This document shows, one piece after another, positions 4,389 to 46,898 of a DNA stretch of 64,000 nucleotides (position 1 is its first letter; every line of letters starts with the position of its first letter). The position numbers and the translations under genes are program-made. The notes under the pieces were generated by a model that saw only the letters and a program-made list of their open reading frames with translations, had not been told where the DNA came from and ran no database searches. This DNA is from Bacteroidia bacterium (GTDB taxonomy: Bacteria; Bacteroidota; Bacteroidia; CAILMK01; JBBDIG01): contig JBBDIG010000024.1 of assembly GCA_040880525.1 (NCBI GenBank), positions 12,522-76,521 on the forward strand. The letters are read 5' to 3'.

Positions 4389-6413
4389 TCAATACCCTAC
4401 CAGCTCCACCAGTGCTTTCTCAAACCGGCTTTTTGCAAGAAAATTCGCTTCAAGCTTAGGTGCCATCGGAACTGGCGTATCCAGGCTCGCTACCCGTTTC
4501 ACCGGTGCGTCTAAATGCTCAAAACAGTGTTCGCTAATCCAGGCTGCGATTTCTCCGCCTATTCCGCCCGTCAGCGTATCCTCATGCAGGATAATCGCTT
4601 TTCCGGTTTTCAGCACAGATTGTTTCACGGCCTCCTGGTCCCACGGCAAAAGGGTGCGTAAGTCAATGAGGTCCGCTGATATTCCGGGGTGTATGTTCAG
4701 CACCTCAAGCGCCCAGTGTACGCCCGCTCCGTAGGTGATGATGCTCACCTCATCTCCGTTGCGCCAGCACCTTGCCTTTCCTAATTCTATGGTATAATAG
4801 TCGTCAAAAATTTCCTCCGAAATGCTGCGGTACAAGGCTTTGTGCTCAAAGAACATCACCGGGTTAGGATCTTCAATACTGGCGGCCAGCAATCCCTTGG
4901 CATCGGAAGGGGAGGAGGGATACACCACCTTCAGGCCGGGAGTATGGAAAAACCAGGCTTCGTTGGACTGCGAATGGAATGGCCCTGCGCCAACGCCTGC
5001 TCCTGTTGGCATCCGCACCACAACATCTGCATTTTGCCCCCAGCGATAATGGATTTTTGCGAGGTTATTTATTATCTGGTTAAAACCGCAGGTTACGAAG
5101 TCTGCAAACTGCATTTCAATTACAGATTTGTAGCCTTCTATGCTTAGACCCAGGCCCATGCCCAGGATTGCTGATTCGCAAAGCGGAGTATTTCGCACCC
5201 GTTCCCGGCCAAACTGCTCAAGAAATCCTTCCGTTACTTTAAATACTCCACCATATTCAGCTACATCCTGCCCCATGATGATGAGGTTCTCGTAGCGTTC
5301 CATGCTCTGCCGCAGCCCGTCAGAAACCGCATCCACCAATCGTTTCTTTGTTTTAGCAGAGGACGCAGGGGCAATAAGAAAATCATTTTCCTGATGAGTG
5401 GCCGCATCTCCCTTCTCCCTTAGAAAAGTATGCTCGTGATAAATATCTGCGAGTTCTGCTGCTGTATGTGCTTCGGCATCTTTTTCATCAAGCGCCTCAT
5501 TCAATGTATTATCAATTTCCGAAGCCATTTCTTTTCGCAAATCTGCAATGGCTTCCAGCGTCAACAACCCTTGTTCCTGTAGATATTCCTGATAATTGCT
5601 GACCGGGTCTTTCTTGCCCCACTCGTCAAATAGCGCCTGCGGTACATACTTCACGCCCGAGGCCTCCTCATGTCCGCGCATTCTGAAGGTCATGCACTCC
5701 AGCAATACCGGACGAGGATTTTCGAGAATTTCTTCCTTTAGAATATTGATGGTGTTAAAGACTTCGAGGATGTTGTTGCCATCAATTTGCACGCCCTCCA
5801 TGCCATACCCGGCTGCCCGGCCTTTCAAATCATCTGTTGCAAATTGCTCCCGCGAAGGCGTGGAGAGGCCATAGCCATTGTTTTCTATAAGAAATATGAT
5901 GGGCAGGTTCCAGACGGCCGCCACATTCAGCGCCTCATGAAATTCCCCCTCGCTGGTTCCGCCCTCTCCCGTAAAGGCCACGGTAATCTTCTTCTCCGCT
6001 TTAAGCTTTTTGCCCAAGGCAATGCCTGCACCCACACTCAACTGCGGCCCCAGGTGGCTAATCATTCCAACGATATGATGGGGCGTGCTGCCGAAGTGAA
6101 ACGAGCGTTCGCGGCCCTTGGAGAAGCCGCTATACTTTCCCTGAAGCTGCGCAAATAGCTTTTCGAGCGGCATTTTCCTGCCAGTAAAAACGCCAAGATT
6201 GCGATGCAAAGGCAGGATAAATTCGTCCTGATCCAGGGCTTGCGTCACGCCCACCGAAATGGCCTCCTGCCCGATGCCCGAAAACCATTTGCTGATGCGA
6301 CCCTTTCGCAGCAGGAGCAGCATTTTTTCTTCGATCATCCTGGGCAGCAGCAGGGCGCGGTATAAGAAAAGCAGCTTTTCATCACTCAGGCTGCCACGGT
6401 CGTAGTTCATCAT
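4389..6413 (-). CDS. 2-oxoacid (branched-chain/pyruvate-type) dehydrogenase E1 component, fused alpha+beta subunits, TPP-dependent
   Basis: The N-terminal half resembles the E1 alpha subunit (TPP-binding region 'GEGGTSEGEFHEALNVAAVWNLPIIFLIENNGYGLSTP'). The C-terminal half resembles the transketolase-like E1 beta subunit ('FADFVTCGFNQIINNLAKIHYRWG', 'VVYPSSPSDAKGLL'). Confidence 0.85.
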   Translation of the reverse strand: MMNYDRGSLSDEKLLFLYRALLLPRMIEEKMLLLLRKGRISKWFSGIGQEAISVGVTQALDQDEFILPLHRNLGVFTGRKMPLEKLFAQLQGKYSGFSKGRERSFHFGSTPHHIVGMISHLGPQLSVGAGIALGKKLKAEKKITVAFTGEGGTSEGEFHEALNVAAVWNLPIIFLIENNGYGLSTPSREQFATDDLKGRAAGYGMEGVQIDGNNILEVFNTINILKEEILENPRPVLLECMTFRMRGHEEASGVKYVPQALFDEWGKKDPVSNYQEYLQEQGLLTLEAIADLRKEMASEIDNTLNEALDEKDAEAHTAAELADIYHEHTFLREKGDAATHQENDFLIAPASSAKTKKRLVDAVSDGLRQSMERYENLIIMGQDVAEYGGVFKVTEGFLEQFGRERVRNTPLCESAILGMGLGLSIEGYKSVIEMQFADFVTCGFNQIINNLAKIHYRWGQNADVVVRMPTGAGVGAGPFHSQSNEAWFFHTPGLKVVYPSSPSDAKGLLAASIEDPNPVMFFEHKALYRSISEEIFDDYYTIELGKARCWRNGDEVSIITYGAGVHWALEVLNIHPGISADLIDLRTLLPWDQEAVKQSVLKTGKAIILHEDTLTGGIGGEIAAWISEHCFEHLDAPVKRVASLDTPVPMAPKLEANFLAKSRFEKALVELVGY

Positions 6414-6543: not shown

Positions 6544-7686
6544 TTAGTTTATTATCACTTTTTTAGTAATAAGTTTTTCATTGATTTTAATTCGAATAAA
6601 ATACATTCCTTTAGCCAATCCTGACACATTGATCTCGTTTTTTTGTCCATATACCTTTACAGTTTTCCCGTTTGAATCCATTATCTCCACCGATTTTGGG
6701 ATTTGAGTGAATTTTAATACGTTGTTAGTTGGGTTTGGAAACAAACCTATTAAATGAGAGGTATTTATTCCAGGCTTTGGAAATGAAACTCCAGAATATC
6801 TCCAAACTCCTTCATACAATGTGCTCACGATTATGGATCTGTTATGAATGACAAAGTCTGAAATAAAATTACCTAAAAAACTTGAGTTGTGAGAGGTCCA
6901 TGTGTTGCCAGTATCGGAAGATAAAAAAATGCTTTTACCCCATGTTCCGCTGAGCATTTTATCACCAGCCATAGTTACAGTTGTCACAAAATCCTCAGTT
7001 ATTCCGTTGCTTGATTTAATCCAAGTCTTTCCATAATTTTCTGATTTATAAAATCCATCTATGGTACCTGCTATTACAAGCGAATCGAAAATTTTTATGG
7101 AATTCGTTTGAATATTAACTCCACTTGGAGGGTTCCACGTGCTTCCTCCATCCGAAGACATAAAAATACCAATGTATGTTCCGGCAAAGATGGCTTGAGA
7201 GTTTATAGCTAATGATAAAGCATTCAAATTTTTTAAACCATTATTGATTGCGGTCCAGCTCGAACCGTTGTTCAATGATTTAAAGACGCCTCCACCAGCC
7301 GTGCCTACATAAAGAATGGAACCTAAAGCTACTATATCCCTTATGTCTAGATTAGTAAGCCCATTGTTTATAGGTGTCCATGACGAACCATTGTTGTCTG
7401 ATAAGAACAGACCATTCCATGTCCCCGCATAGATATTCCCCTGATTGGTTTCGATGACCCTAACTACTCTTTCAGATAGTCCGGTATTTATAGAATTCCA
7501 CGTCAATCCATTATCTGTTGAAAGGAATATTCCGTCAAAATCGGTTCCAACATAAAGATTAGTTTCATCACTTGCTACACATCTGGCTTTAACATCGGAG
7601 AGTCCTAATAAGTCCCATTGTGCAATCGCATGAAGGGAGTAAAAAATTGATAGAAATATTGTTAATAGTTGTTTCATGGCTTTCAA
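6544..7686 (-). CDS. BNR/sortilin-repeat protein with T9SS C-terminal sorting domain
   Basis: It has a signal peptide and repeated 'S.DGG.SW' BNR-like motifs. The C-terminal ~80 aa ('LFPNPTNNVLKF...GMYFIRIKIN') look like a Por secretion CTD. Confidence 0.7.
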   Translation of the reverse strand: MKAMKQLLTIFLSIFYSLHAIAQWDLLGLSDVKARCVASDETNLYVGTDFDGIFLSTDNGLTWNSINTGLSERVVRVIETNQGNIYAGTWNGLFLSDNNGSSWTPINNGLTNLDIRDIVALGSILYVGTAGGGVFKSLNNGSSWTAINNGLKNLNALSLAINSQAIFAGTYIGIFMSSDGGSTWNPPSGVNIQTNSIKIFDSLVIAGTIDGFYKSENYGKTWIKSSNGITEDFVTTVTMAGDKMLSGTWGKSIFLSSDTGNTWTSHNSSFLGNFISDFVIHNRSIIVSTLYEGVWRYSGVSFPKPGINTSHLIGLFPNPTNNVLKFTQIPKSVEIMDSNGKTVKVYGQKNEINVSGLAKGMYFIRIKINEKLITKKVIIN

Positions 7687-18305: not shown

Positions 18306-20516
18306 TTATTTGCTTTCAATTGTAAACAGAGGGGAGAACTTTATTTTACCCGTTTTCCGTACAAAAAATGCAGAGCAAAGACCAATATTGCCTTTTGCCA
18401 CTTGTTCACGAATGTAGGGGCTGCCCTCCACAATCCTGATTTTTGATTCGTTCAGGTTCCACAGGGTAATTTCATCAGCCAAAGTATTCAGATCTTCTTT
18501 CTCCAGCTTTTCCTTACTGAATGCCCCTGAATCAAGCGCAGGAGACAGCAACGGATGGAGGTAGGATTCTTTCCCTGCACGATAATTTTCCAGTGCCTCC
18601 TGAATAAATGAATTGCCGGAATTTCCCATAAGCAGAATTAATTTGGCCCCTTGCTTCCGGCAGGCAATTTCAGCACTGTAAATCGAATAGGCGCTCACCA
18701 GGTTGCCGGCAGTTCGTAACGGAATCAAATCTCCGATTCCTGTATTAAGAAGCATATTTAATGGCTCCCGCATATCTATGCTATTGACCACAGTAGCCAG
18801 CGGAGCTTCTTTAATGAAATCTATAAGTTCTTTATTCCGGTAACGCCTTGATACCAATTTGCCATCCACATAAAGCTGATTTCCTTCGATCATGTAATTC
18901 AGAATATCCTGCGGTGTGTGCAATTCTTTTTTCTCGGGAAGAGGTGTTTTAATTAAGTTCTTATTCTTATTGCTGCCATAGCTTTCCTTAAGGCCGGTTA
19001 TGACGACCTGGATATTGTTTTCAGGGGCAAATGTGTTTTCAAAATCATGTAATATTTCGATAATGTCCTGCTCTACATAGGTTGAAAATGTGGCATCAAT
19101 AATTACTCTTGAGTTTTTAGGAAGGCCCCACAATGTCTTTTTTATTGCTGGTTTATTAAGAAACGATACTTCGTTAGATAACTCCAGCCGGATGGCTTCC
19201 CCCTTTTTTGATTTAGAACTCTCAATGTAAAAGGGATTATAAAAATTACCCCTTAGTAAATAAAAAATGCTTACGGCAGTACCGATCATTACTCCGATCA
19301 GCACATCCGTGACCAGGATTCCGATGGTGGTGACAACGAAAGGGATGAACTGGTCCCAGCCTTTCAAAAACATGCTTCTGAAAATAGAAATAGAAGCAAG
19401 TTTGTACCCCACAACAAGCAGGATGGCCGCAAGGGATGCAAGGGGGATTAAATTGATAACCGGACTTATCGCTAAAACGCTGGCGAGCAATAATGTGCCA
19501 TGAAGAATGGTGGAAAGCCTGGTTTCAGCACCGGCCGCTATGTTTACCGAGCTCCTGACGATTACCGAAGTGATAGGTATGCCACCGATCAATCCTGCCA
19601 GCGTATTTCCTATTCCCTGCGCCACCAATTCGCGGTTGGGCGGGCTTCTCCTTTTATGCGGATCCAGGTTATCAGCCGCTTCTATAGCAAGCAAGGAAGC
19701 AATAGACGCAATCAGCGCAATGGTAAATGCATAGGTCCATACCTTAAAATTTGAGATGGAACTAAAATCAGGGAAGGTAACAGAGGAGGTAAATTCCTGC
19801 ACATCTGGTATGTTGACCAAATGATTTTCGTCAAGATAAAAATAGGGGGTAACATGCTTAAAAAATAAATTAATTAATACGCCAAAAAACACAACGAAAA
19901 GAAAAGAGGGCAAAAATTTAATATTCTTGAGAAAAGTTTTATCCCAATATATAAGTATTAATAATGAAAAAGTCGTTAATATGAGAGCGCCTGGCGATAT
20001 GGAATTAAAAACCACAAGAATCATATCTGGCGAAGTGAGGATAAAATCGCGGGAGTAGTCAGCCATACGGCTATCCAACTCCACTCCCAGGGCGTAAGGA
20101 ATTTGCGAAATAATGAGAATAAGACCGATGGCAGCCAGCAATCCTTTAATAATGCTGGTAGGCATATAATCCGCGATCATGCCGGCTTTTAACATTCCGA
20201 GTATGAACTGAAAGATACCGCCAATAGTCAGCGCCAGCAAAAAGACATCGAAGTTGCCGAGCTCCTTTATCGCAACCAGTACCACGGCTGTAAGGCTTGC
20301 GGCAGGTCCGCTTACGCTGATGTGCGACTGGCTGATGAAACCGATGACAATACCTCCGATAATGCCTGAAATGAGGCCGGAAATCAGAGGAGCTCCGGAG
20401 GCAAGCGCTATGCCCAGGCACAGCGGCAACGCTACTAAAAATACCACTAAACCTGCCGGGATGTCTTTATCCGGTCGGGAAAAAAGCGGCCTGCTTATGT
20501 CCTTAAAATTTGGCAT
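18306..20516 (-). CDS. SulP family inorganic anion transporter with C-terminal beta-carbonic-anhydrase-like domain (apparently lacking Zn ligands)
   Basis: The N-terminus carries the SulP signature ('PAGLVVFLVALPLCLGIALASGAPL...'). The C-terminal ~220 aa have a beta-CA-like layout, but 'SIDMR' replaces 'CxDxR' and 'GNSGNS' replaces 'HxxCG'. Confidence 0.7.
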   Translation of the reverse strand: MPNFKDISRPLFSRPDKDIPAGLVVFLVALPLCLGIALASGAPLISGLISGIIGGIVIGFISQSHISVSGPAASLTAVVLVAIKELGNFDVFLLALTIGGIFQFILGMLKAGMIADYMPTSIIKGLLAAIGLILIISQIPYALGVELDSRMADYSRDFILTSPDMILVVFNSISPGALILTTFSLLILIYWDKTFLKNIKFLPSFLFVVFFGVLINLFFKHVTPYFYLDENHLVNIPDVQEFTSSVTFPDFSSISNFKVWTYAFTIALIASIASLLAIEAADNLDPHKRRSPPNRELVAQGIGNTLAGLIGGIPITSVIVRSSVNIAAGAETRLSTILHGTLLLASVLAISPVINLIPLASLAAILLVVGYKLASISIFRSMFLKGWDQFIPFVVTTIGILVTDVLIGVMIGTAVSIFYLLRGNFYNPFYIESSKSKKGEAIRLELSNEVSFLNKPAIKKTLWGLPKNSRVIIDATFSTYVEQDIIEILHDFENTFAPENNIQVVITGLKESYGSNKNKNLIKTPLPEKKELHTPQDILNYMIEGNQLYVDGKLVSRRYRNKELIDFIKEAPLATVVNSIDMREPLNMLLNTGIGDLIPLRTAGNLVSAYSIYSAEIACRKQGAKLILLMGNSGNSFIQEALENYRAGKESYLHPLLSPALDSGAFSKEKLEKEDLNTLADEITLWNLNESKIRIVEGSPYIREQVAKGNIGLCSAFFVRKTGKIKFSPLFTIESK

Positions 20517-21279: not shown

Positions 21280-22149
21280 TTGGGTTTTATTATAAAAATG
21301 GGAAAGGAAGATCAGATACCGCTGCACAATTTTACCAAAGATGACGAGGACAGTATTGCTTTTAAGCTGCATTCCCTCGAAAAGCGGAGTTACTATGATT
21401 TTACAGTGCCTCACCGGCATAATTACTTTGAGATATTTTTCTTTGAAGTGGGCGGAGGCTATCATCTTATTGACTTCGAGGAATTTGAGATACAGGATGG
21501 AAGTATTCATTTCGTGTCTCCAGGTCAGGTACATGTGCTGAAAAGAGCTCCCGGCTCTTATGGTTATATCGTCATTTTTTCTCGTGAATTTTTCTACAAA
21601 GCCACGCCTGATAACCGGCTCCTCTTCCGGCACCCGCTTTTGCACAATCGTACCAATTATCCCATCATAAAGCCGGTGCAAAAGCATTTTCAAGAATTGG
21701 TGAATTGCGTTACCAGGATGGGGCAGGAGCTCGCCCGCAACAGTCCCTACATGGAAGAATTAATGCGCCTTTATCTCCATGAAATGCTTTTCAGAAGTGC
21801 TGAAAACCTGGAACGGAAGCAACAGGAGCCGGATCTGGTCATGAGCTTTTTCGCCTTGCTGGAAACTCATTTCTATGAATGGCATTTCGTAACACAATAT
21901 GCAGACGAACTGGCCGTCTCTGACAGGCAGTTGGGGCATGAACTCAGCAACTCCACCGGAAAAACCACCCTGGAGCATATCGCGCAGCGCCTGATGCTGG
22001 AGGCAATGAGGCTTCTGCAATACAGCGAACTGAGCGTGAAGGAAATCGGCTTCCGGCTGGGATTTGACGACCCGGCCCATTTCGGCAAATTTTTTAAAAA
22101 GCACAGAAAAATTTCGCCTGGGGCATTCCGCAGTAAAAGCAATGAATAA
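21280..22149 (+). CDS. AraC family transcriptional regulator (cupin-like N-domain + HTH)
   Basis: The C-terminal HTH_AraC reads 'LSVKEIGFRLGFDDPAHFGKFFKKHRKISPGAFR'. The N-terminus is cupin-like ('HRHNYFEIFF...HFVSPGQVHV'). Confidence 0.8.
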   Translation: MGFIIKMGKEDQIPLHNFTKDDEDSIAFKLHSLEKRSYYDFTVPHRHNYFEIFFFEVGGGYHLIDFEEFEIQDGSIHFVSPGQVHVLKRAPGSYGYIVIFSREFFYKATPDNRLLFRHPLLHNRTNYPIIKPVQKHFQELVNCVTRMGQELARNSPYMEELMRLYLHEMLFRSAENLERKQQEPDLVMSFFALLETHFYEWHFVTQYADELAVSDRQLGHELSNSTGKTTLEHIAQRLMLEAMRLLQYSELSVKEIGFRLGFDDPAHFGKFFKKHRKISPGAFRSKSNE

Positions 22150-22237
22150 ATAAAAACAGGATTTACCATAGTTATGAATTAATATACTATTGTTAATATT
22201 TTGTGGTAAAGTAGTTTTGTTAAAAATATTAATCAAA

Positions 22238-23086
22238 ATGAAACTACGATACTTACTTCTTTCCCTGGCCCTGATCCCGGGGTACTCACTTTTGCACGGA
22301 CAAACCTCATTGCCTTATTACTCAGCCTTTGACGATGCTTCGCAGCAGGACGGCTGGGAGGAATACGAAACGGGCACAGACAGCGATCCTTACCACTGGA
22401 ATTTTGCATCATTTGCAGCCTACTCCCCTCCACATAGCCTGAATCACAACTATCCTGTGGGCGGCTCGGAGCGCACCGATGACTGGTTTGTATCACCCGA
22501 ATTCGATTTTAGCAATGGCGCTACTATAGATTCATTGCGGTATGTTTTCACAGGTTTCGGTACACCCATGGACGGAGATACGATCGCGATCTATCTTATT
22601 AATGGTTCGAAAGATCCGGAGACAGCCACAACCCGCACCATTCTTTACAATTTTACTGACAGCACCTATGAGAATGATAATGTTTGGCGAAAGCTGGAGG
22701 CATTGAATATTCCCGCCACCAGCGGACAAAGCCACATAGCATTCCGTTATACCACCATTGTGAACTGGCTGGATGTGAGACTGGATAATTTAAAGATCAG
22801 CGAAAAGCCCACTGGTATAAATGAACCGGCAGCAATCAATGAGGCGATTACTATATATCCAAATCCGGTTATCACAGAATTAACGGTAGCGTGGAATTTC
22901 AGATCTGAAGGAGCCACCATTACGCTGTTCAATATGAATGGAAAAGTGATGCAGCGCCAATTGATCGCAGGAGAATCTCAGCAGAAGCTTATCCTGGAAA
23001 CCGGTGGGTTAAAGCCGGGAATATATATGTTACAGGTTACCGGCACGTCAGGCCGTGTTTTTTCCAGAAGATTTTTGAAACAATAA
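22238..23086 (+). CDS. secreted protein with T9SS C-terminal sorting domain
   Basis: It has a signal peptide 'MKLRYLLLSLALIPGYSLLHGQ'. The C-terminal CTD reads 'ITIYPNPVITELTV...GIYMLQVTGTSGRVFSRRFLK'. Confidence 0.65.
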   Translation: MKLRYLLLSLALIPGYSLLHGQTSLPYYSAFDDASQQDGWEEYETGTDSDPYHWNFASFAAYSPPHSLNHNYPVGGSERTDDWFVSPEFDFSNGATIDSLRYVFTGFGTPMDGDTIAIYLINGSKDPETATTRTILYNFTDSTYENDNVWRKLEALNIPATSGQSHIAFRYTTIVNWLDVRLDNLKISEKPTGINEPAAINEAITIYPNPVITELTVAWNFRSEGATITLFNMNGKVMQRQLIAGESQQKLILETGGLKPGIYMLQVTGTSGRVFSRRFLKQ

Positions 23087-23153: not shown

Positions 23154-24056
23154 ATGAAAGTTTCGAGACGCACAGCCATAAAATCTTCTCTGCTAACTGG
23201 CCTGGGCCTGATGATGCCCGCAAGAATGATAGCGGATGAATGCCTAACAACGGCAGACATTGAAGGACCATATTATATACCCGGTTCTCCACACAGCAGC
23301 AAAATAGCATCATCCGGATCAGCGGGCACAAAGCTGTTCATCACAGGCAGCGTGTATGCTAACGATTGCACTACGCCCATAAAGGGTGCTGTGGTTGACG
23401 TGTGGCAGGCAAATGATGGTGGCGGATATGAGGATGAAAATTATCGCGGAATTATTAAGACAGATCAAACCGGGAAATATGCGTTTGAGTCAATTCTACC
23501 CGGCAAATACCTGAACGGTTCCCAATACCGGCCGCGCCACCTGCACTATAAGGTATCGGCTCCGGACATTATTCCCGGCCTCGTTCTCACCACCCAGATA
23601 TATTTTGAGGGCGATACCTCGATTCCTATAGATCCATGGGCCTCTGATCCTGATGCTGCAGAAAGGATCATTGCGCTGAGCACAGACCAGAACAATGCTG
23701 AGCATGGCGTGGCAGATATAGTGATAGACATTGATCCTGAGTTGGTGACCGGCACAGGCGCTCAGCCGGCTGAGATGGGAACCGGGATCGGCAGCATTAA
23801 GCCCAACCCGGTGCAGGAATCAGCAACCGTAATAATAGCGCTTGCACGGGCAGGCCGTGCATCTCTGAAAGTATATAATCTGGATGGCCGGGAAATAATG
23901 AAGGTGATTGAGAATAAAGCCATGAATGCAGGTGAGCACCGGCTGCCCTTTTTTGCACGGAACCAATATGGGCTGAAACTAAGCTCCGGCATCTATATTA
24001 TGAAGTTATGGCAGGAGGGTATTCCTGCAGATGTGAAGCGATTTGTAGTGCGTTGA
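23154..24056 (+). CDS. intradiol ring-cleavage dioxygenase-like protein with Tat signal and T9SS C-terminal sorting domain
   Basis: 'SRRTAIKSSLLTGLGLMMPA' is a twin-arginine signal. The dioxygenase core reads 'EGPYYIPGSP...GAVVDVWQANDGGGYED...YRPRHLHYKVSAP...TQIYFEGD'. The C-terminal ~80 aa form a T9SS CTD ('...GIYIMKLWQEG...'). Confidence 0.7.
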   Translation: MKVSRRTAIKSSLLTGLGLMMPARMIADECLTTADIEGPYYIPGSPHSSKIASSGSAGTKLFITGSVYANDCTTPIKGAVVDVWQANDGGGYEDENYRGIIKTDQTGKYAFESILPGKYLNGSQYRPRHLHYKVSAPDIIPGLVLTTQIYFEGDTSIPIDPWASDPDAAERIIALSTDQNNAEHGVADIVIDIDPELVTGTGAQPAEMGTGIGSIKPNPVQESATVIIALARAGRASLKVYNLDGREIMKVIENKAMNAGEHRLPFFARNQYGLKLSSGIYIMKLWQEGIPADVKRFVVR

Positions 24057-24513: not shown

Positions 24514-25044
24514 ATGAGCCAACTTAAAATTTTTCTCCTGCTTACCCTGGGTGGAACCCTCCTGTTGGGTTGCGAAAGAAATACTGAATGGGAGGTTGAA
24601 GGGTATCAACCGGTTTACTCAGCAGATTCGGTTGCCATAAAATCCGTGGAAGCCCGCCCGGTGAAGAACCCCGGAAAGATTTATTATAAGGACAACTTCA
24701 TTTTTATAAATGAAAAAAGCCTGGGTGTTCACGTTATTGACAACACCGATCCTACCCATCCCAAGAATATTTCGTTCATCAGGATCCCCTATAACAGCGA
24801 TGTTTCTATTAAAGAGACTTACATGTATGCGAACAATGGGAATCATCTGGCAGTGATTGATATTTCAAATCCGCTCGCTGCGGTGGTAGTGAAGGAAGTG
24901 CAGAACGTGATAGACTTCGACAAGAATTCGCAGGATCTGTATCCACCAGAGCAGGGATTTTATTTTGATTGTGTAGATCCCGACAAAGGAATGGTGATAG
25001 GCTGGGAAAAAGCTGACCTGACCAATCCTCAATGTTTCCGCTAA
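24514..25044 (+). CDS. lipoprotein, LVIVD-repeat-like (beta-propeller) hypothetical
   Basis: It has the 'LLLGC' lipobox and 'LGVHVIDNTDPTHP...LAVIDISNP' repeats. Confidence 0.5.
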   Translation: MSQLKIFLLLTLGGTLLLGCERNTEWEVEGYQPVYSADSVAIKSVEARPVKNPGKIYYKDNFIFINEKSLGVHVIDNTDPTHPKNISFIRIPYNSDVSIKETYMYANNGNHLAVIDISNPLAAVVVKEVQNVIDFDKNSQDLYPPEQGFYFDCVDPDKGMVIGWEKADLTNPQCFR

Positions 25045-25074: not shown

Positions 25075-25866
25075 ATGAAGAAGATATTAATGCTAATGAT
25101 GATTGCGGCAGGGGCCTTTGCCTTTCAAGGCTGCAGCAAAGGAGATATGGACAGTCCCTCGCAAAGTCCCACACAAGGAAATACCGGAACCGGTGGAACT
25201 GGAACCGGTACGGGTGGGTCCATGGCGAGGTTTACCATAGCCAAAGATTTTTTGTACATCATCCAGAACGACCGTCTGGAGGTATTTTCTCTGGCGAATG
25301 CAGCCGAACCTGTACATTCTTCCGGGATGAAGTTACAAGGGAGTGAAATAGAAACCATTTTTGCTTTCCACGAATATTTGCTGATGGGAACCCGTTCAGG
25401 AATGCTGATCTACAGCATTACAAATCCGAGCCAGCCGGTATATGTTTCCACTTATGCACACATTCGCAGATGCGACCCCGTAGTGGCGCAGGGAAATTAT
25501 GCCTATGTCACGCTTCGCACGGGCACGGATTGCGGAGGCACACCGGTAAATGAACTTCAGGTGATTGATATCAGCAATATGAGTTCCCCAAGTTTGGTAA
25601 ACACATATCCGTTGAGCAATCCATTTGGCCTGGGCGTAGATGGCAACCACCTTTTTGTTTGTGATGGAACGGATGGTTTGAAAGTATTTGACAACGAGGA
25701 TCCGGAGAGCCTGGAAATGACCAACCATATTACCGGCATTGAAACTTTTGATGTGATTCCGTACAACAACTTGCTAATGGTGATTGGACCGGATGGTCTT
25801 AGCCAATATGACTACTCTGATATTAACTATCTCAAGTTGCTTTCTACAATTCCAGTGACCGAATAA
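25075..25866 (+). CDS. lipoprotein, LVIVD-repeat-containing hypothetical
   Basis: It has the 'AFQGC' lipobox and a Gly/Thr-rich linker 'GNTGTGGTGTGTGG'. It also has 'LQVIDISNMSSP', 'LFVCDGTDGLKVFDNEDP' repeats. Confidence 0.5.
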   Translation: MKKILMLMMIAAGAFAFQGCSKGDMDSPSQSPTQGNTGTGGTGTGTGGSMARFTIAKDFLYIIQNDRLEVFSLANAAEPVHSSGMKLQGSEIETIFAFHEYLLMGTRSGMLIYSITNPSQPVYVSTYAHIRRCDPVVAQGNYAYVTLRTGTDCGGTPVNELQVIDISNMSSPSLVNTYPLSNPFGLGVDGNHLFVCDGTDGLKVFDNEDPESLEMTNHITGIETFDVIPYNNLLMVIGPDGLSQYDYSDINYLKLLSTIPVTE

Positions 25867-43616: not shown

Positions 43617-44204
43617 TGCGGTTTTTAATGAAGGGCAATTTAAGAAGAAGGCATGCGCTCCGGTTAATGGTTTTCAGGGATTTTGCCTGGTTATTACAAA
43701 TGTTTCTGAATGGGATATTTTTAATTCTGGTGATCATGTTTTGAGGGTGATTGTGTTTTGCGGATGGGAGCGCTTGGGCTGCTTGCTATAATAATTTCAT
43801 CCCTTCAGAATTTCCAAAAATTGATGAAAAAAATGGATGACAACATTTCCAACATTTCGATCCATACCCCCGGTTTCAACCGGGGGTATGAAGAATGCCG
43901 ACCCATAACCGTTTCAACGGTTTATTGTAGCGGCTAACCCTTCACTCCCAACCCTTCAAGGGTTTTGCTGCAACAATATATGATATCAATTGGATTTAAA
44001 GCGCTGATTTTTAGTATCAACGCAACAATCGCCAGGATAGATTTTCTGTATTGAGTTTAATAGTATCTTTGATAACGACTTCCCCGGAATTCATTTTTTT
44101 CACACCTAACATTAAAAGATAACCCTTATGAAAAATATGAATTCTTTCTTACGGCTTTTCGCAGCAGTTTGTCTTATCGTTATCCAGGGCAAGTTTATTA
44201 TCCA

Positions 44205-46898
44205 ATGAAATATTTAATGTTCATACTCCTTTCATTCCCCTCCTGCCTATTGGCGCAGGAGGGGAATGTCTGGATTTTTGGGAGTAAAAACGGCCTTGAC
44301 TTTAATACGGAACCCCCTACAGTTATAACCAATGGGGCATCGCTAGGTACGGCTTCTTGTGCCAGCTATTGTGACAGCCTGGGCAGGTTACTATTTTATT
44401 GTCTCGATGATTCGATATACAATAGGAATCATCAATTCATACCTGATGGGAAATTTGGACAGGAATCCGGTTCCTATTCCCAAGCCGCTATTATCCTTCC
44501 TGTTGTCGGCCAACCATCCCTGTATTATCTGTTTCTGGTAGATAATATTCTGGGCGGTGTTGGTGTTAAAAAGGACGGTGCTACCTATTCTGTTATAGAC
44601 ATGCGGTTGAATAATGGTTTAGGAGGAATTGCAACAAAGGAAGTACCTTTTTTTAAAAAAACCTGCCATAAAATCACGGCCATTCAGCATGTCAATCAAA
44701 AGGATTACTGGGTCATCACCCGGAGTGGGGACAGCCTCTTTGCCTTTCCAATTACGGAAGCTGGAATTGGCTCCCCCGTTACTTCCTATATGCCAGCCCT
44801 TGAAGGCATAGGAAATATAAAAGCTTCACGGGATGGGAAGATTTTGATCGAATGCAGTTCCACTTTTGACAGTTTTGTATATATCTACGATTTTGATCCG
44901 GGTTCAGGCGTTTTTTCCAATCAAAGCATCCTAGAGCAATTTATCCGTGAATTCAATCAAGAAACACTTTTCCGGTATCAGGATGCTACATTTTCACCCA
45001 ATGATTCTTTACTGTATATTGTAGGATATGGTCATGATAATAAAGGCCAAGTCTATAGTTCAAACCGACAGCCTCTGGCCCAATACCAGCGTTATGCACC
45101 GGATATAAAATCTACCCGGCATTGGGTGTTTCCTCCTGCTAATGATGGGTTTGCTTCACTTCAACTTGCACCCAATGGAAAAATTTATGTCAACCCTATT
45201 GGGCATGACCACATGGCGGTGATCCATTCTCCTGACTCTATAGGGGAGGCCATGCAGCTAGAATTTCAGTATATTGACTATCCCCAAAACCAGTATAGCC
45301 GCTTTGCCTTCCCCAACATCATCAATGCCTATAAATCCGTTAAATTCCGCTACACCCAAAACTGCAGCTACAGATATCAGAATGTATCTGACACCCAGTT
45401 CTTCAGCACCTACACCTGGTTCTTTGCCGATCATTTTACCGGGATTACCGACAGCGTTGAAGGGTTTGCACCCTCGTATCAATTTTCGCGCACGGGGAAA
45501 TACCTCGTGAAGCTGCGGGCCACCACGCCAGCGGGCTACAACCAGTGGTACAGTGACAGTGTGCTGTTTATTTCCCGCCCCCAGGCAACTTTTACCACAG
45601 AAGATACTACCGGCTGCCAGTGGTTGGGCTTCCGGTTTGCGGATGCATCCACCACCGATACCCTGGATACCACGCGCGGTGAAAGCTGGCTATGGCACTT
45701 CGGTGATGGCACCACCGGCACGGAACAAAATCCCACCCACATCTACACCGAAAACGGCAGCTATACCGTGAGCCTGATTTACAACAACGGCTTCTGTAGC
45801 GATACCATTACCAGAAAGCAGGTGGTAGAGATATTGCCTGCCCCCAAACCGGGCTTTTCGCTCAGTGCTGCTTCGGGCTGTGCGCCTTTCACTGCGCAAG
45901 TCACGGATCAATCGCAGGGGCAGGTAACGCACTATACCTACTACTACGGCCACCTCACCGGCCTTCATATTCCCGATCCGGAGATCAGCTTCCCCGAACC
46001 GGGCGATTTCTGGGTGCATCAAATTCTGCTCTCACCCACCGGCTGCATCACGCAAGATTCCGTGGCCGTGGATGTTTCAGATGGCTTCTCTGAAAATGAC
46101 AGCATTCATACGGTGGTAGCCACGGTTACAGCCAGCCAGCATGTATCGCTGCAATGGCAGCCGCACCCGCTGGCCCGGCTCTACCAAGTGTTCCGGCTGG
46201 ATGACGGCACTTTCACGGAGTTGGCAAAAACATCATTTACCGACTACACGGACCACGGTGCGCCCGTGGCAGCGCAGCCGGTAACCTACCGCATTACCGC
46301 CAGCGACAGTTGCGGCAAACAATCCTCTGCAGGCCGTGTGGCCACCACCATCCACCTTTCCGGAACCAGCCATGGCAATGAGTTCAACCTCATCCGCTTT
46401 TCGGCTTATGAAGAATGGCCCAATGGCGTTGGCCACTACACAATCGAGATTCAGCAGCCGGAGGGCACTTTCGATTCCGTAGCCTCTATGCCGCAACCCG
46501 TTGCAGATTACAAACTGGACTTCACACCCACAAACGGGCAATACCAAACCTGTTACCGCATAAAAGCCGTGAAGAAGGAGGGAAACTTTGTCAGCCTTAG
46601 CAACCGCCTGTGCCTGCCTTATCAGCCCACCGTCTGGGTGCCCACGGCCTTCAGCCCCAATGGTGACGGCTACAACGACACGTTCAGCGCCACCGCCATT
46701 GGCATCCATTCCTTCAAGATGGAAATCTACACCCGCTGGGGGGAGCAGGTATTTTCTTCAGGCGACCTTAACCAAAGCTGGGACGGCAGCATCAATGGAA
46801 AACCTGCACAGGCAGGCGTTTACCTCTACAAGTTGCGCGTATTCGGTAGCGACAATAAATACACAGAAAGCGAAGGGACGCTGTTGCTGGTGAAGTGA
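44205..46898 (+). CDS. large secreted PKD-domain protein with T9SS type-B (gliding-motility-associated) C-terminal domain
   Basis: It has a signal peptide 'MKYLMFILLSFPSCLLAQ'. A PKD-like segment reads 'WHFGDGTTGTEQNPTHIYTENGSYTVSLI'. The C-terminus 'PTAFSPNGDGYNDTF...YTRWGEQVF...WDGS...GVYLYKLRVFG' is a CHU_C/type-B CTD. Confidence 0.75.
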   Translation: MKYLMFILLSFPSCLLAQEGNVWIFGSKNGLDFNTEPPTVITNGASLGTASCASYCDSLGRLLFYCLDDSIYNRNHQFIPDGKFGQESGSYSQAAIILPVVGQPSLYYLFLVDNILGGVGVKKDGATYSVIDMRLNNGLGGIATKEVPFFKKTCHKITAIQHVNQKDYWVITRSGDSLFAFPITEAGIGSPVTSYMPALEGIGNIKASRDGKILIECSSTFDSFVYIYDFDPGSGVFSNQSILEQFIREFNQETLFRYQDATFSPNDSLLYIVGYGHDNKGQVYSSNRQPLAQYQRYAPDIKSTRHWVFPPANDGFASLQLAPNGKIYVNPIGHDHMAVIHSPDSIGEAMQLEFQYIDYPQNQYSRFAFPNIINAYKSVKFRYTQNCSYRYQNVSDTQFFSTYTWFFADHFTGITDSVEGFAPSYQFSRTGKYLVKLRATTPAGYNQWYSDSVLFISRPQATFTTEDTTGCQWLGFRFADASTTDTLDTTRGESWLWHFGDGTTGTEQNPTHIYTENGSYTVSLIYNNGFCSDTITRKQVVEILPAPKPGFSLSAASGCAPFTAQVTDQSQGQVTHYTYYYGHLTGLHIPDPEISFPEPGDFWVHQILLSPTGCITQDSVAVDVSDGFSENDSIHTVVATVTASQHVSLQWQPHPLARLYQVFRLDDGTFTELAKTSFTDYTDHGAPVAAQPVTYRITASDSCGKQSSAGRVATTIHLSGTSHGNEFNLIRFSAYEEWPNGVGHYTIEIQQPEGTFDSVASMPQPVADYKLDFTPTNGQYQTCYRIKAVKKEGNFVSLSNRLCLPYQPTVWVPTAFSPNGDGYNDTFSATAIGIHSFKMEIYTRWGEQVFSSGDLNQSWDGSINGKPAQAGVYLYKLRVFGSDNKYTESEGTLLLVK

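Follow-up and report, generated by a model that had tools for sequence, protein, structure and literature searches.

The window analysed here, a 64,000-nucleotide stretch of contig JBBDIG010000024.1 from a Bacteroidia bacterium, encodes at positions 23154..24056 of its plus strand a protein that joins a twin-arginine leader, a minimal intradiol dioxygenase domain and a type IX secretion system (T9SS) C-terminal sorting domain (CTD). We read it as a secreted or surface-exposed Fe(III) intradiol dioxygenase of catechol-type compounds that would leave the cell in two steps, crossing the inner membrane by twin-arginine translocation (Tat) and then the outer membrane through the T9SS. From sequence and structure prediction, we put the probability of this reading at about 0.6. 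A preliminary description of the window, made from its letters, had proposed the same combination. All three parts, namely a Tat-type leader, an intradiol domain with intact metal ligands and a type A T9SS CTD, are found together in the protein and recur family-wide.

The open reading frame (ORF) begins with ATG and encodes a precursor of 300 residues, the stop codon being counted in the span. An in-frame stop lies only four codons 5' of the ATG (the stop-to-stop ORF runs from 23142), so the N-terminus MKVSRRTAIK (MKVSRRTAIKSSLLTGLGLMMPARMIADEC) is unambiguous and no artefact of start choice. A public protein (P0001) is 100% identical and bears the NCBI name 'MAG: T9SS type A sorting domain-containing protein [Bacteroidia bacterium]'. 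The AlphaFold2 model of the 300-residue protein (alignment n=102) has a mean predicted local distance difference test (pLDDT) score of 92.1 and a predicted TM-score (pTM) of 0.86. Residues 1-30 are of low confidence; they are followed by a β-sandwich up to about residue 200, a short linker of lower confidence and a seven-strand C-terminal domain. By sequence as well as by structure, the closest characterised protein is SACTE_2871 of Streptomyces sp. SirexAA-E (PDB 4ILT/4ILV), the reference enzyme of the extracellular intradiol dioxygenases (EIDs). The parts of the gene are as follows.

23154..24056, plus strand: whole gene, with Tat-type leader, minimal intradiol dioxygenase domain, linker and T9SS type A CTD (from the ORF list and domain matches).
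23154..23234, plus strand: predicted Tat signal peptide, residues 1-27 (from family conservation and low AlphaFold2 confidence).
23166..23171, plus strand: codons of the twin arginines R5 and R6 (invariant columns of the homologue alignment).
23235..23753, plus strand: catalytic β-sandwich, residues 28-200, of the SACTE_2871 type, without an N-terminal helical dimerisation domain (from PF00775, phmmer, Foldseek and pLDDT).
23241..23243 and 23367..23369, plus strand: Cys30 and its partner Cys72, a conserved pair and putative disulfide.
23427..23429, plus strand: Tyr92, predicted Fe(III) ligand, which corresponds to Tyr408 in the β chain of protocatechuate 3,4-dioxygenase (3,4-PCD) (aligned with the GGRY tyrosine of 2pcd_M, chain residue 108).
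23508..23510, plus strand: Tyr119, predicted Fe(III) ligand, equivalent to Tyr447 (phmmer alignment PGKY/PGPY).
23538..23546, plus strand: His129-Leu-His131, predicted Fe(III) ligands that correspond to His460 and His462, in the motif R-P-R-H-L-H (alignment RPRHLH/RPAHIH).
23784..24053, plus strand: T9SS type A CTD, residues 211-300; its motifs are PNP, G-x-Y and a terminal K-R-x-x-x (TIGR04183).

The leader consists of an n-region, MKVS-RR-TAIK, a weakly hydrophobic h-region, SSLLTGLGLMMPA, and a c-region with the basic residue R24; by the -3/-1 rule, signal peptidase I would likely cut after MIA27. SRRTAIK fits the TatP-style pattern RR.[FGAVML][LITMVF], and the next 13 residues are uncharged. 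When the window is translated in all six frames, the pattern [ST]RR.[FLAI][LI]K has one match, and this is the dioxygenase ORF.

Each of the 111 N-termini aligned, all from full-length homologues (about 40-62% identity), has the arginine pair, while its flanks vary: the preceding residue is K, N, S, D or E and the following one Q, N, K, T or D. As the pair is conserved among such variable neighbours, it is more than a chance motif. The fourth residue past it is lysine in 96 of the 111 sequences and arginine in 9; at position 24, in the c-region, 72 of 116 homologues have K or R. All relatives with a complete N-terminus show x-R-R-x-h-h-K near the start, the exceptions being obviously mis-started. 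Distant members of 34-40% identity carry a textbook Tat motif, for example MKNNSRRQFLKNTTLAG (SRRQFLKNT), and still end in a T9SS CTD. When ten homologue leaders were scored, eight reached the cut-off of the Tat profile TIGR01409 (16.7; range 16.7 to 24.6 bits), and one exceeded that of PF10518 (26.8 vs 22.7). Natural RK or KR variants, in which the rest of the consensus is kept, are also seen (L038, L043 and L048; P0163 and P0183), with ITRKYFLKS, SKRLFIKT, MNRKDFML and TRKKFLKL.

A homology search returned 308 relatives, of which the best 120 are nearly all 280-310 residues long and mostly carry both PF00775 and PF18962. Relatives are present in 357 species genomes of a GTDB scan with one genome per species. 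The best 80 of these, all metagenome-assembled genomes, supplied the 80 loci compared below. Nearly all belong to Bacteroidota, joined by Ignavibacteriota; their taxa are Saprospiraceae, Lewinellaceae, Phaeodactylibacter, uncultured marine Flavobacteriales, Chitinophagales, Cytophagales, and Ignavibacteriota or Kapaibacterium. One locus (L032, CAYULF010000035.1) is labelled Hyphomicrobiales: the first 48 residues of its dioxygenase show a single difference from those of L030, and it has other ORFs with a T9SS CTD. The label is probably a binning error.

The other T9SS-tailed proteins of the same contigs serve as a control. A CTD profile, built iteratively and run on every ORF in the window and in the 80 loci, found 128 ORFs with a CTD at the C-terminus. 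A Tat-like filter (RR-x-h-h, then an uncharged stretch) was passed by 68 of them, every one a dioxygenase homologue, and by none of the 53 non-dioxygenase CTD ORFs, whose leaders are short and of the MKK...AQ type. One control ORF opens with MMNRRVLQL, yet its core is strongly hydrophobic. The maximal 10-residue Kyte-Doolittle value is 1.87 ± 0.27 for dioxygenase leaders and 2.58 ± 0.56 for the 53 controls (Welch t about 8.5, by arithmetic from these means and standard deviations), with the control value somewhat inflated by the choice of the most hydrophobic candidate start per ORF. The search for co-occurring Tat and T9SS signals in other cargo, which had been suggested, found none among these 53 ORFs. 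A separate look for Tat in use, across 1.4 Mb of related contigs, met a strict Tat motif only in a fragment of the dioxygenase itself.

We also searched with the catalytic domain only (residues 28-205). HMMER, run exhaustively, gave 3283 cluster representatives at E ≤ 0.001; tightening the limit to 1e-10 left 1062, and 60 remained at E ≤ 1e-30. Among the best 150 of these 50%-identity representatives, 108 have a Tat-like leader, 32 a T9SS CTD and 24 both. The eight CTD-bearing sequences that fail the filter comprise three with a truncated N-terminus, two with RR and an excluded residue, and three variants (two RK, one SRSDFIIK). A Tat-like leader is present in 84 of the 118 representatives without a CTD, in many cases with a lipobox-like ...GC after it; RR leaders of that pattern occur in all of the representatives nearest to SACTE_2871 by sequence (about 50% identity). 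Since most relatives outside Bacteroidota also have Tat leaders, the T9SS tail seems to have been added to an enzyme that Tat already exported. The simplest reading of these sequences is that Tat export is ancestral for the minimal-dioxygenase clade and that its Bacteroidota and Ignavibacteriota members gained the tail.

At the other end of the protein, TIGR04183 matches residues 217-290 of 300, at the extreme C-terminus, with 25.8 bits (cut-off 23). The hallmark positions P217, N218, P219, G279, Y281, K295 and R296 are conserved in the alignment, and PF18962 is precomputed in most homologues. The AlphaFold2 model places seven strands across residues 211-299 with pLDDT above 95, and this modelled C-terminal sandwich matches the published description of a type A CTD. 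Failure of T9SS models to recognise the domain had been named beforehand as grounds for doubt; TIGR04183 does recognise it, and PF18962 scores it below threshold. Both profiles put forward at that time, PF00775 (84.8 bits, cut-off 27.3) and TIGR04183, score above their cut-offs. Other predicted cargo in the window, of type A and type B, implies that the host has a T9SS. At 44169-46898 (plus strand) lies a 909-residue protein with a type B CTD (TIGR04131, 50.5 bits), and at 6544-7686 (minus strand) a 380-residue F510_1955-like glycosylhydrolase with a type A CTD (47.3 bits) and a candidate leader without twin arginines.

The catalytic domain is the match of PF00775 (Dioxygenase_C, gathering score 27.3), which covers residues 36-193; pLDDT exceeds 93 throughout it. 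We read the ligand positions from a phmmer alignment to the β chain of Pseudomonas protocatechuate 3,4-dioxygenase, 2pcd_M, whose Y408, Y447, H460 and H462 are the established Fe(III) ligands of the family. The corresponding Y92, Y119, H129 and H131 are unchanged in 116 of 116 full-length homologues, so the loss of iron ligands that had been considered as a possible refutation does not apply: all four, two tyrosines and two histidines, are kept. Also invariant in this alignment are Arg126-Pro127 (Arg126 being a second-sphere residue), Trp84, Arg98 and a YF(E)G motif.

Foldseek against the PDB ranks the SACTE_2871 dioxygenase domain first (target-normalised TM-score 0.90-0.93, root-mean-square deviation 1.4-1.7 Å, 32% identity), above all catechol, chlorocatechol, hydroxyquinol and protocatechuate dioxygenases, with a probability of 1.00 to many intradiol dioxygenases. 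The top phmmer match is likewise SACTE_2871 (4ILT, E 1.5e-18). Scores lie far under the equivalog cut-offs of PcaH (TIGR02422, 64 vs 296.4) and CatA (TIGR02439, 62.7 vs 392), which makes the protein a member of the superfamily and an orthologue of neither. We infer from these comparisons an iron-dependent enzyme that would cut catechol-type rings in the ortho mode. The intradiol fold can be loaded with iron in a cytoplasm.

Cys30 is present in 115 and Cys72 in all 116 of the homologues, and an equivalent pair is seen in the Tat-lipoprotein relatives that have no CTD. Judging by this conservation, the two probably form a structural disulfide after export. A role of Cys30 as a lipoprotein cysteine was ruled out: D, E, N or Q mostly precede it, unlike in a lipobox.

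Several results weigh against our reading of the protein. The leader of the window protein stays under the PF10518 threshold (13.1 vs 22.7 bits), finds no match with TIGR01409 and has Ala-Ile where the Tat consensus, (S/T)-R-R-x-F-L-K, has Phe-Leu; because it is sub-threshold, its assignment to Tat comes mainly from positional homology with the leaders that pass. A motif scan of the 64-kb window found neither tatA nor tatC, and none of its ten largest ORFs, scanned against NCBIfam, is a T9SS machinery gene. PF18962 (Por_Secre_tail) remains below its gathering score (21.2 vs 27) in the window protein, and the inflation of the control hydrophobicity noted above belongs on the same side. Four relatives of the catalytic domain (P0154, P0155, P0170 and P0179) have plain leaders (MKK…FGQ) of the general secretory (Sec) pathway. 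The neighbourhood scan found no muconate or β-ketoadipate genes near the dioxygenase, which also fits an enzyme working outside the cell and not in a cytoplasmic pathway. An AraC-type regulator gene, which precedes the dioxygenase in the window, is absent near P0007 and P0011, the closest relatives examined, and a conserved operon was rejected after all-against-all clustering of neighbours gave only lineage-level synteny.

In reviews and primary papers, T9SS substrates enter the periplasm via Sec, in agreement with what the preliminary description had said of them. T9GPred calls a protein as cargo only when a Sec signal is present and a Tat signal absent, a rule derived from 102 experimentally identified cargo proteins. 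It would reject the window protein, whose leader is of the twin-arginine type and not the Sec type of described cargo. None of the T9SS cargo proteins verified by experiment carries a Tat signal, a further point on the opposing side. Full-text searches of open-access papers met generic statements only and no report of a Tat-routed T9SS substrate; a report elsewhere is possible.

The best-placed alternative, which we consider unlikely, takes up these points: the leader would be an ordinary Sec signal with two arginines by chance, and the protein would cross the membrane unfolded, fold and bind iron in the periplasm or outside, and be a T9SS substrate like the others. Besides the low profile scores of the window leader and the Sec-type leaders of all experimentally known cargo, it can call upon the relatives with clear Sec leaders. 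These relatives mean that Tat is preferred and not obligatory for the fold, and by their sequences the export route was switched at least occasionally within the dioxygenase clade; two of them have much longer architectures (P0155, 597 residues; P0170, 495 residues). A chance origin is hard to square with a pair kept in every homologue amid varying neighbours, with the eight of ten leaders that pass TIGR01409, or with an h-region that is less hydrophobic and a c-region whose basic residue is of the kind that typically keeps a leader from Sec. It also leaves aside that no other CTD ORF passes the Tat-like filter and that Tat-like leaders dominate the relatives without CTD in other phyla.

Less probable still is an enzyme that Tat exports and that then remains periplasmic, its CTD being a degenerate or repurposed Ig-like domain used, for example, in substrate binding or oligomerisation. 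A pTM of 0.86 suggests that both domains pack together, and many relatives outside Bacteroidota are predicted to be periplasmic or lipoproteins. The sub-threshold PF18962 score, which this alternative would also claim, has to be set against the TIGR04183 score above cut-off, the PF18962 matches in most homologues and the conserved hallmark positions; in addition, the domain sits at the extreme C-terminus and is almost confined to lineages that use T9SS-type tails. Finally, a non-catalytic module binding catechols or iron, for instance in the capture of catecholate siderophores, is very improbable: the want of catabolic genes downstream and the scores far under the PcaH and CatA cut-offs would suit it, but four invariant Fe ligands, an invariant Arg-Pro-x-His-x-His and a close superposition on an active enzyme would not.

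A Tat-to-T9SS route is not forbidden, because the T9SS translocon carries folded proteins, a CTD fused to sfGFP is enough for T9SS export from the periplasm, Tat and T9SS occur together in at least one Flavobacteriia genome, and a Tat route into the type II secretion system (T2SS) is accepted. The logic of the latter is the same: Tat exports a protein already folded, and an outer-membrane system that can accept such a protein carries it out of the periplasm. The targeting signal differs, being conformational in the T2SS and, here, a discrete cleavable C-terminal domain of the T9SS. Canonical type A cargo, such as gingipains and enzymes of F. johnsoniae, has the same seven-strand Ig-like TIGR04183 domain at the extreme C-terminus; it has Sec leaders, whereas the dioxygenase family combines a conserved twin-arginine leader with a metal cofactor.

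The window protein and SACTE_2871 have in common a minimal β-sandwich, the site of two tyrosines and two histidines, an N-terminal export signal and a C-terminal non-catalytic domain. The last of these is a lignin-binding CBM5/12 domain in SACTE_2871, which is not clade-wide, and a T9SS CTD, predicted to be cleavable, in the window protein. Bianchetti and colleagues are said to have described SACTE_2871, in 2013, as Tat-secreted. Its host is monoderm, so that Tat alone reaches the outside. The host of the window protein is diderm, and a second translocation step is therefore needed.

A 2025 study delineates the EID clade around SACTE_2871 and finds signal peptides in 97% of its bacterial members; secreted intradiol dioxygenase homologues are known in spider mites as well. 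The earlier view that an extracellular non-haem-iron ring-cleaving enzyme would be unusual finds no support; SACTE_2871 is itself secreted. The window protein shows the EID traits: it has no dimerisation domain, its catalytic domain directly follows the leader, and residues 1-27 form a predicted export leader. With CatA and PcaH it shares the superfamily, the iron ligands and the RPxHxH motif. Unlike these, it is predicted to be exported and has no helical N-terminal domain, no α subunit and no neighbouring β-ketoadipate genes.

We now propose a route, each step of which we deduce from the sequence, from predicted structure and by comparison. The twin-arginine leader of about 27 residues would direct the precursor to TatABC. 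Before transport, the β-sandwich would fold in the cytoplasm and take up iron through Tyr92, Tyr119, His129 and His131, so that Tat would carry a folded holoenzyme, together with the folded CTD, into the periplasm. There, signal peptidase I would cut the leader near Ala27 and the Cys30-Cys72 disulfide would probably form. The T9SS would then recognise the type A CTD and move the folded protein through the outer membrane; the CTD would be cleaved and the enzyme released or anchored to the surface. Outside the cell, it would open catecholic rings with O2, as SACTE_2871 does. An AraC-family sensor resembling HpaA probably controls expression and may respond to an aromatic effector; of all steps, this one has the least support.

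The genes directly upstream are these two.

21280..22149, plus strand: AraC-family regulator with a cupin sensor and HTH_18 (PF12833, PF02311).
22238..23086, plus strand: choice-of-anchor J protein with a type A CTD and a Sec-type leader (NF038128, 41.5 bits; TIGR04183, 43.7 bits).

Together with the dioxygenase gene, they form a co-oriented series with spacers of 88 and 67 bp. A Bacteroidota-type -7 box, TAGTTTTG, lies at 22212, 26 nt 5' of the choice-of-anchor J gene, and none was found in the 67-bp spacer before the dioxygenase. When the intergenic regions were analysed for promoters, terminators and hairpins, no signal was significant (z -1.3 and -1.4); this includes the hairpins that lie in this spacer and those downstream of the dioxygenase gene. 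Co-transcription of the dioxygenase with the 22238-23086 gene is possible; whether the latter belongs to the unit is uncertain.

An AraC homologue is encoded upstream on the same strand in 7-8 of the 80 loci, which come from different lineages. It adjoins the dioxygenase in L016, L045 and L046 and is one gene away, as in the window, in L035, L036, L037 and L041; L050 has only a partial AraC match at the equivalent position. The best match of the adjacent homologues is HpaA, the 4-hydroxyphenylacetate regulator (TIGR02297), at 113-117 bits, well under the equivalog cut-off; the regulator of the window reaches 72.8 bits. The intervening genes of L035, L036, L037 and L041 make up one uncharacterised family, unrelated to the choice-of-anchor J gene of the window. 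A CTD was detected in those of L036 and L041, none in that of L037, and no homologue of the choice-of-anchor J gene was found at the equivalent position in any other locus.

The three genes had been suggested to form one regulated module. The recurrence of AraC upstream speaks for part of this proposal; the middle gene of those other loci is not homologous to that of the window, and the closest relatives examined have no AraC gene nearby. Judged from gene order, it is plausible that AraC regulates the dioxygenase, a link that recurs without being universal, and the three-gene module as such is not conserved.

In L076 (8138-9992) and about nine similar loci of Saprospiraceae, Chitinophagales and Ignavibacteriota, the dioxygenase is preceded not by AraC but by an extracytoplasmic function (ECF) sigma factor and a 431-residue protein; the latter, which has no family match, is possibly an anti-sigma factor. 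A co-oriented T9SS-CTD gene stands directly 5' of the dioxygenase in the window (22238-23086), L083 (5319-5972), L012 (344-1045), L036 (8884-9882), L041 (8961-9956) and L063 (8646-9983), with L036 and L041 sharing a passenger family that is not that of the window. As CTD ORFs occur about once per 26 kb in these contigs, the upstream enrichment is mild and partly non-independent between lineages.

The SulP, AHSA1, LVIVD, E2 and MltG neighbours of the window gene are not kept beside it in other loci. Downstream, two adjacent LVIVD-repeat proteins (24514-25044 and 25075-25866, plus strand) have lipoprotein-like leaders (…LLLGCERN and …AFQGCSKGD). Further away on the minus strand, the SulP sulfate permease is fused with a β-carbonic anhydrase (18306-20516), and the E1 α and E1 β chains of a 2-oxoacid dehydrogenase are fused into 674 residues (4389-6413).

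Secreted dioxygenases of the SACTE_2871 type were known already. What is new is one with a T9SS tail and, apparently undescribed, the Tat-to-T9SS route that this implies, and our interest lies in this route more than in the enzyme itself. On balance, if only by a little, we favour the general claim that the T9SS has a second entry route, in which cofactor-loaded proteins folded in the cytoplasm arrive via Tat and are handed over by a type A CTD. If so, the first known cargo of the Tat-to-T9SS kind would be this dioxygenase family, which is spread over hundreds of Bacteroidota and Ignavibacteriota species; the textbook statement of Sec-only entry would be incomplete, and pipelines that filter out Tat signals would miss a conserved class of cargo. 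The T9SS would accept a metallo-holoenzyme folded before the inner membrane, which would bear on how CTDs are recognised and would be relevant to the display or secretion of cofactor-containing enzymes by this system. For the organisms themselves, it would mean extracellular Fe(III)-dependent ring cleavage in abundant marine and wastewater Bacteroidota (Saprospiraceae, Lewinellaceae and uncultured Flavobacteriales), with a bearing on the turnover of catecholic compounds: polyphenols, lignin fragments, 3,4-dihydroxyphenylalanine (DOPA)-type compounds and catecholate siderophores.

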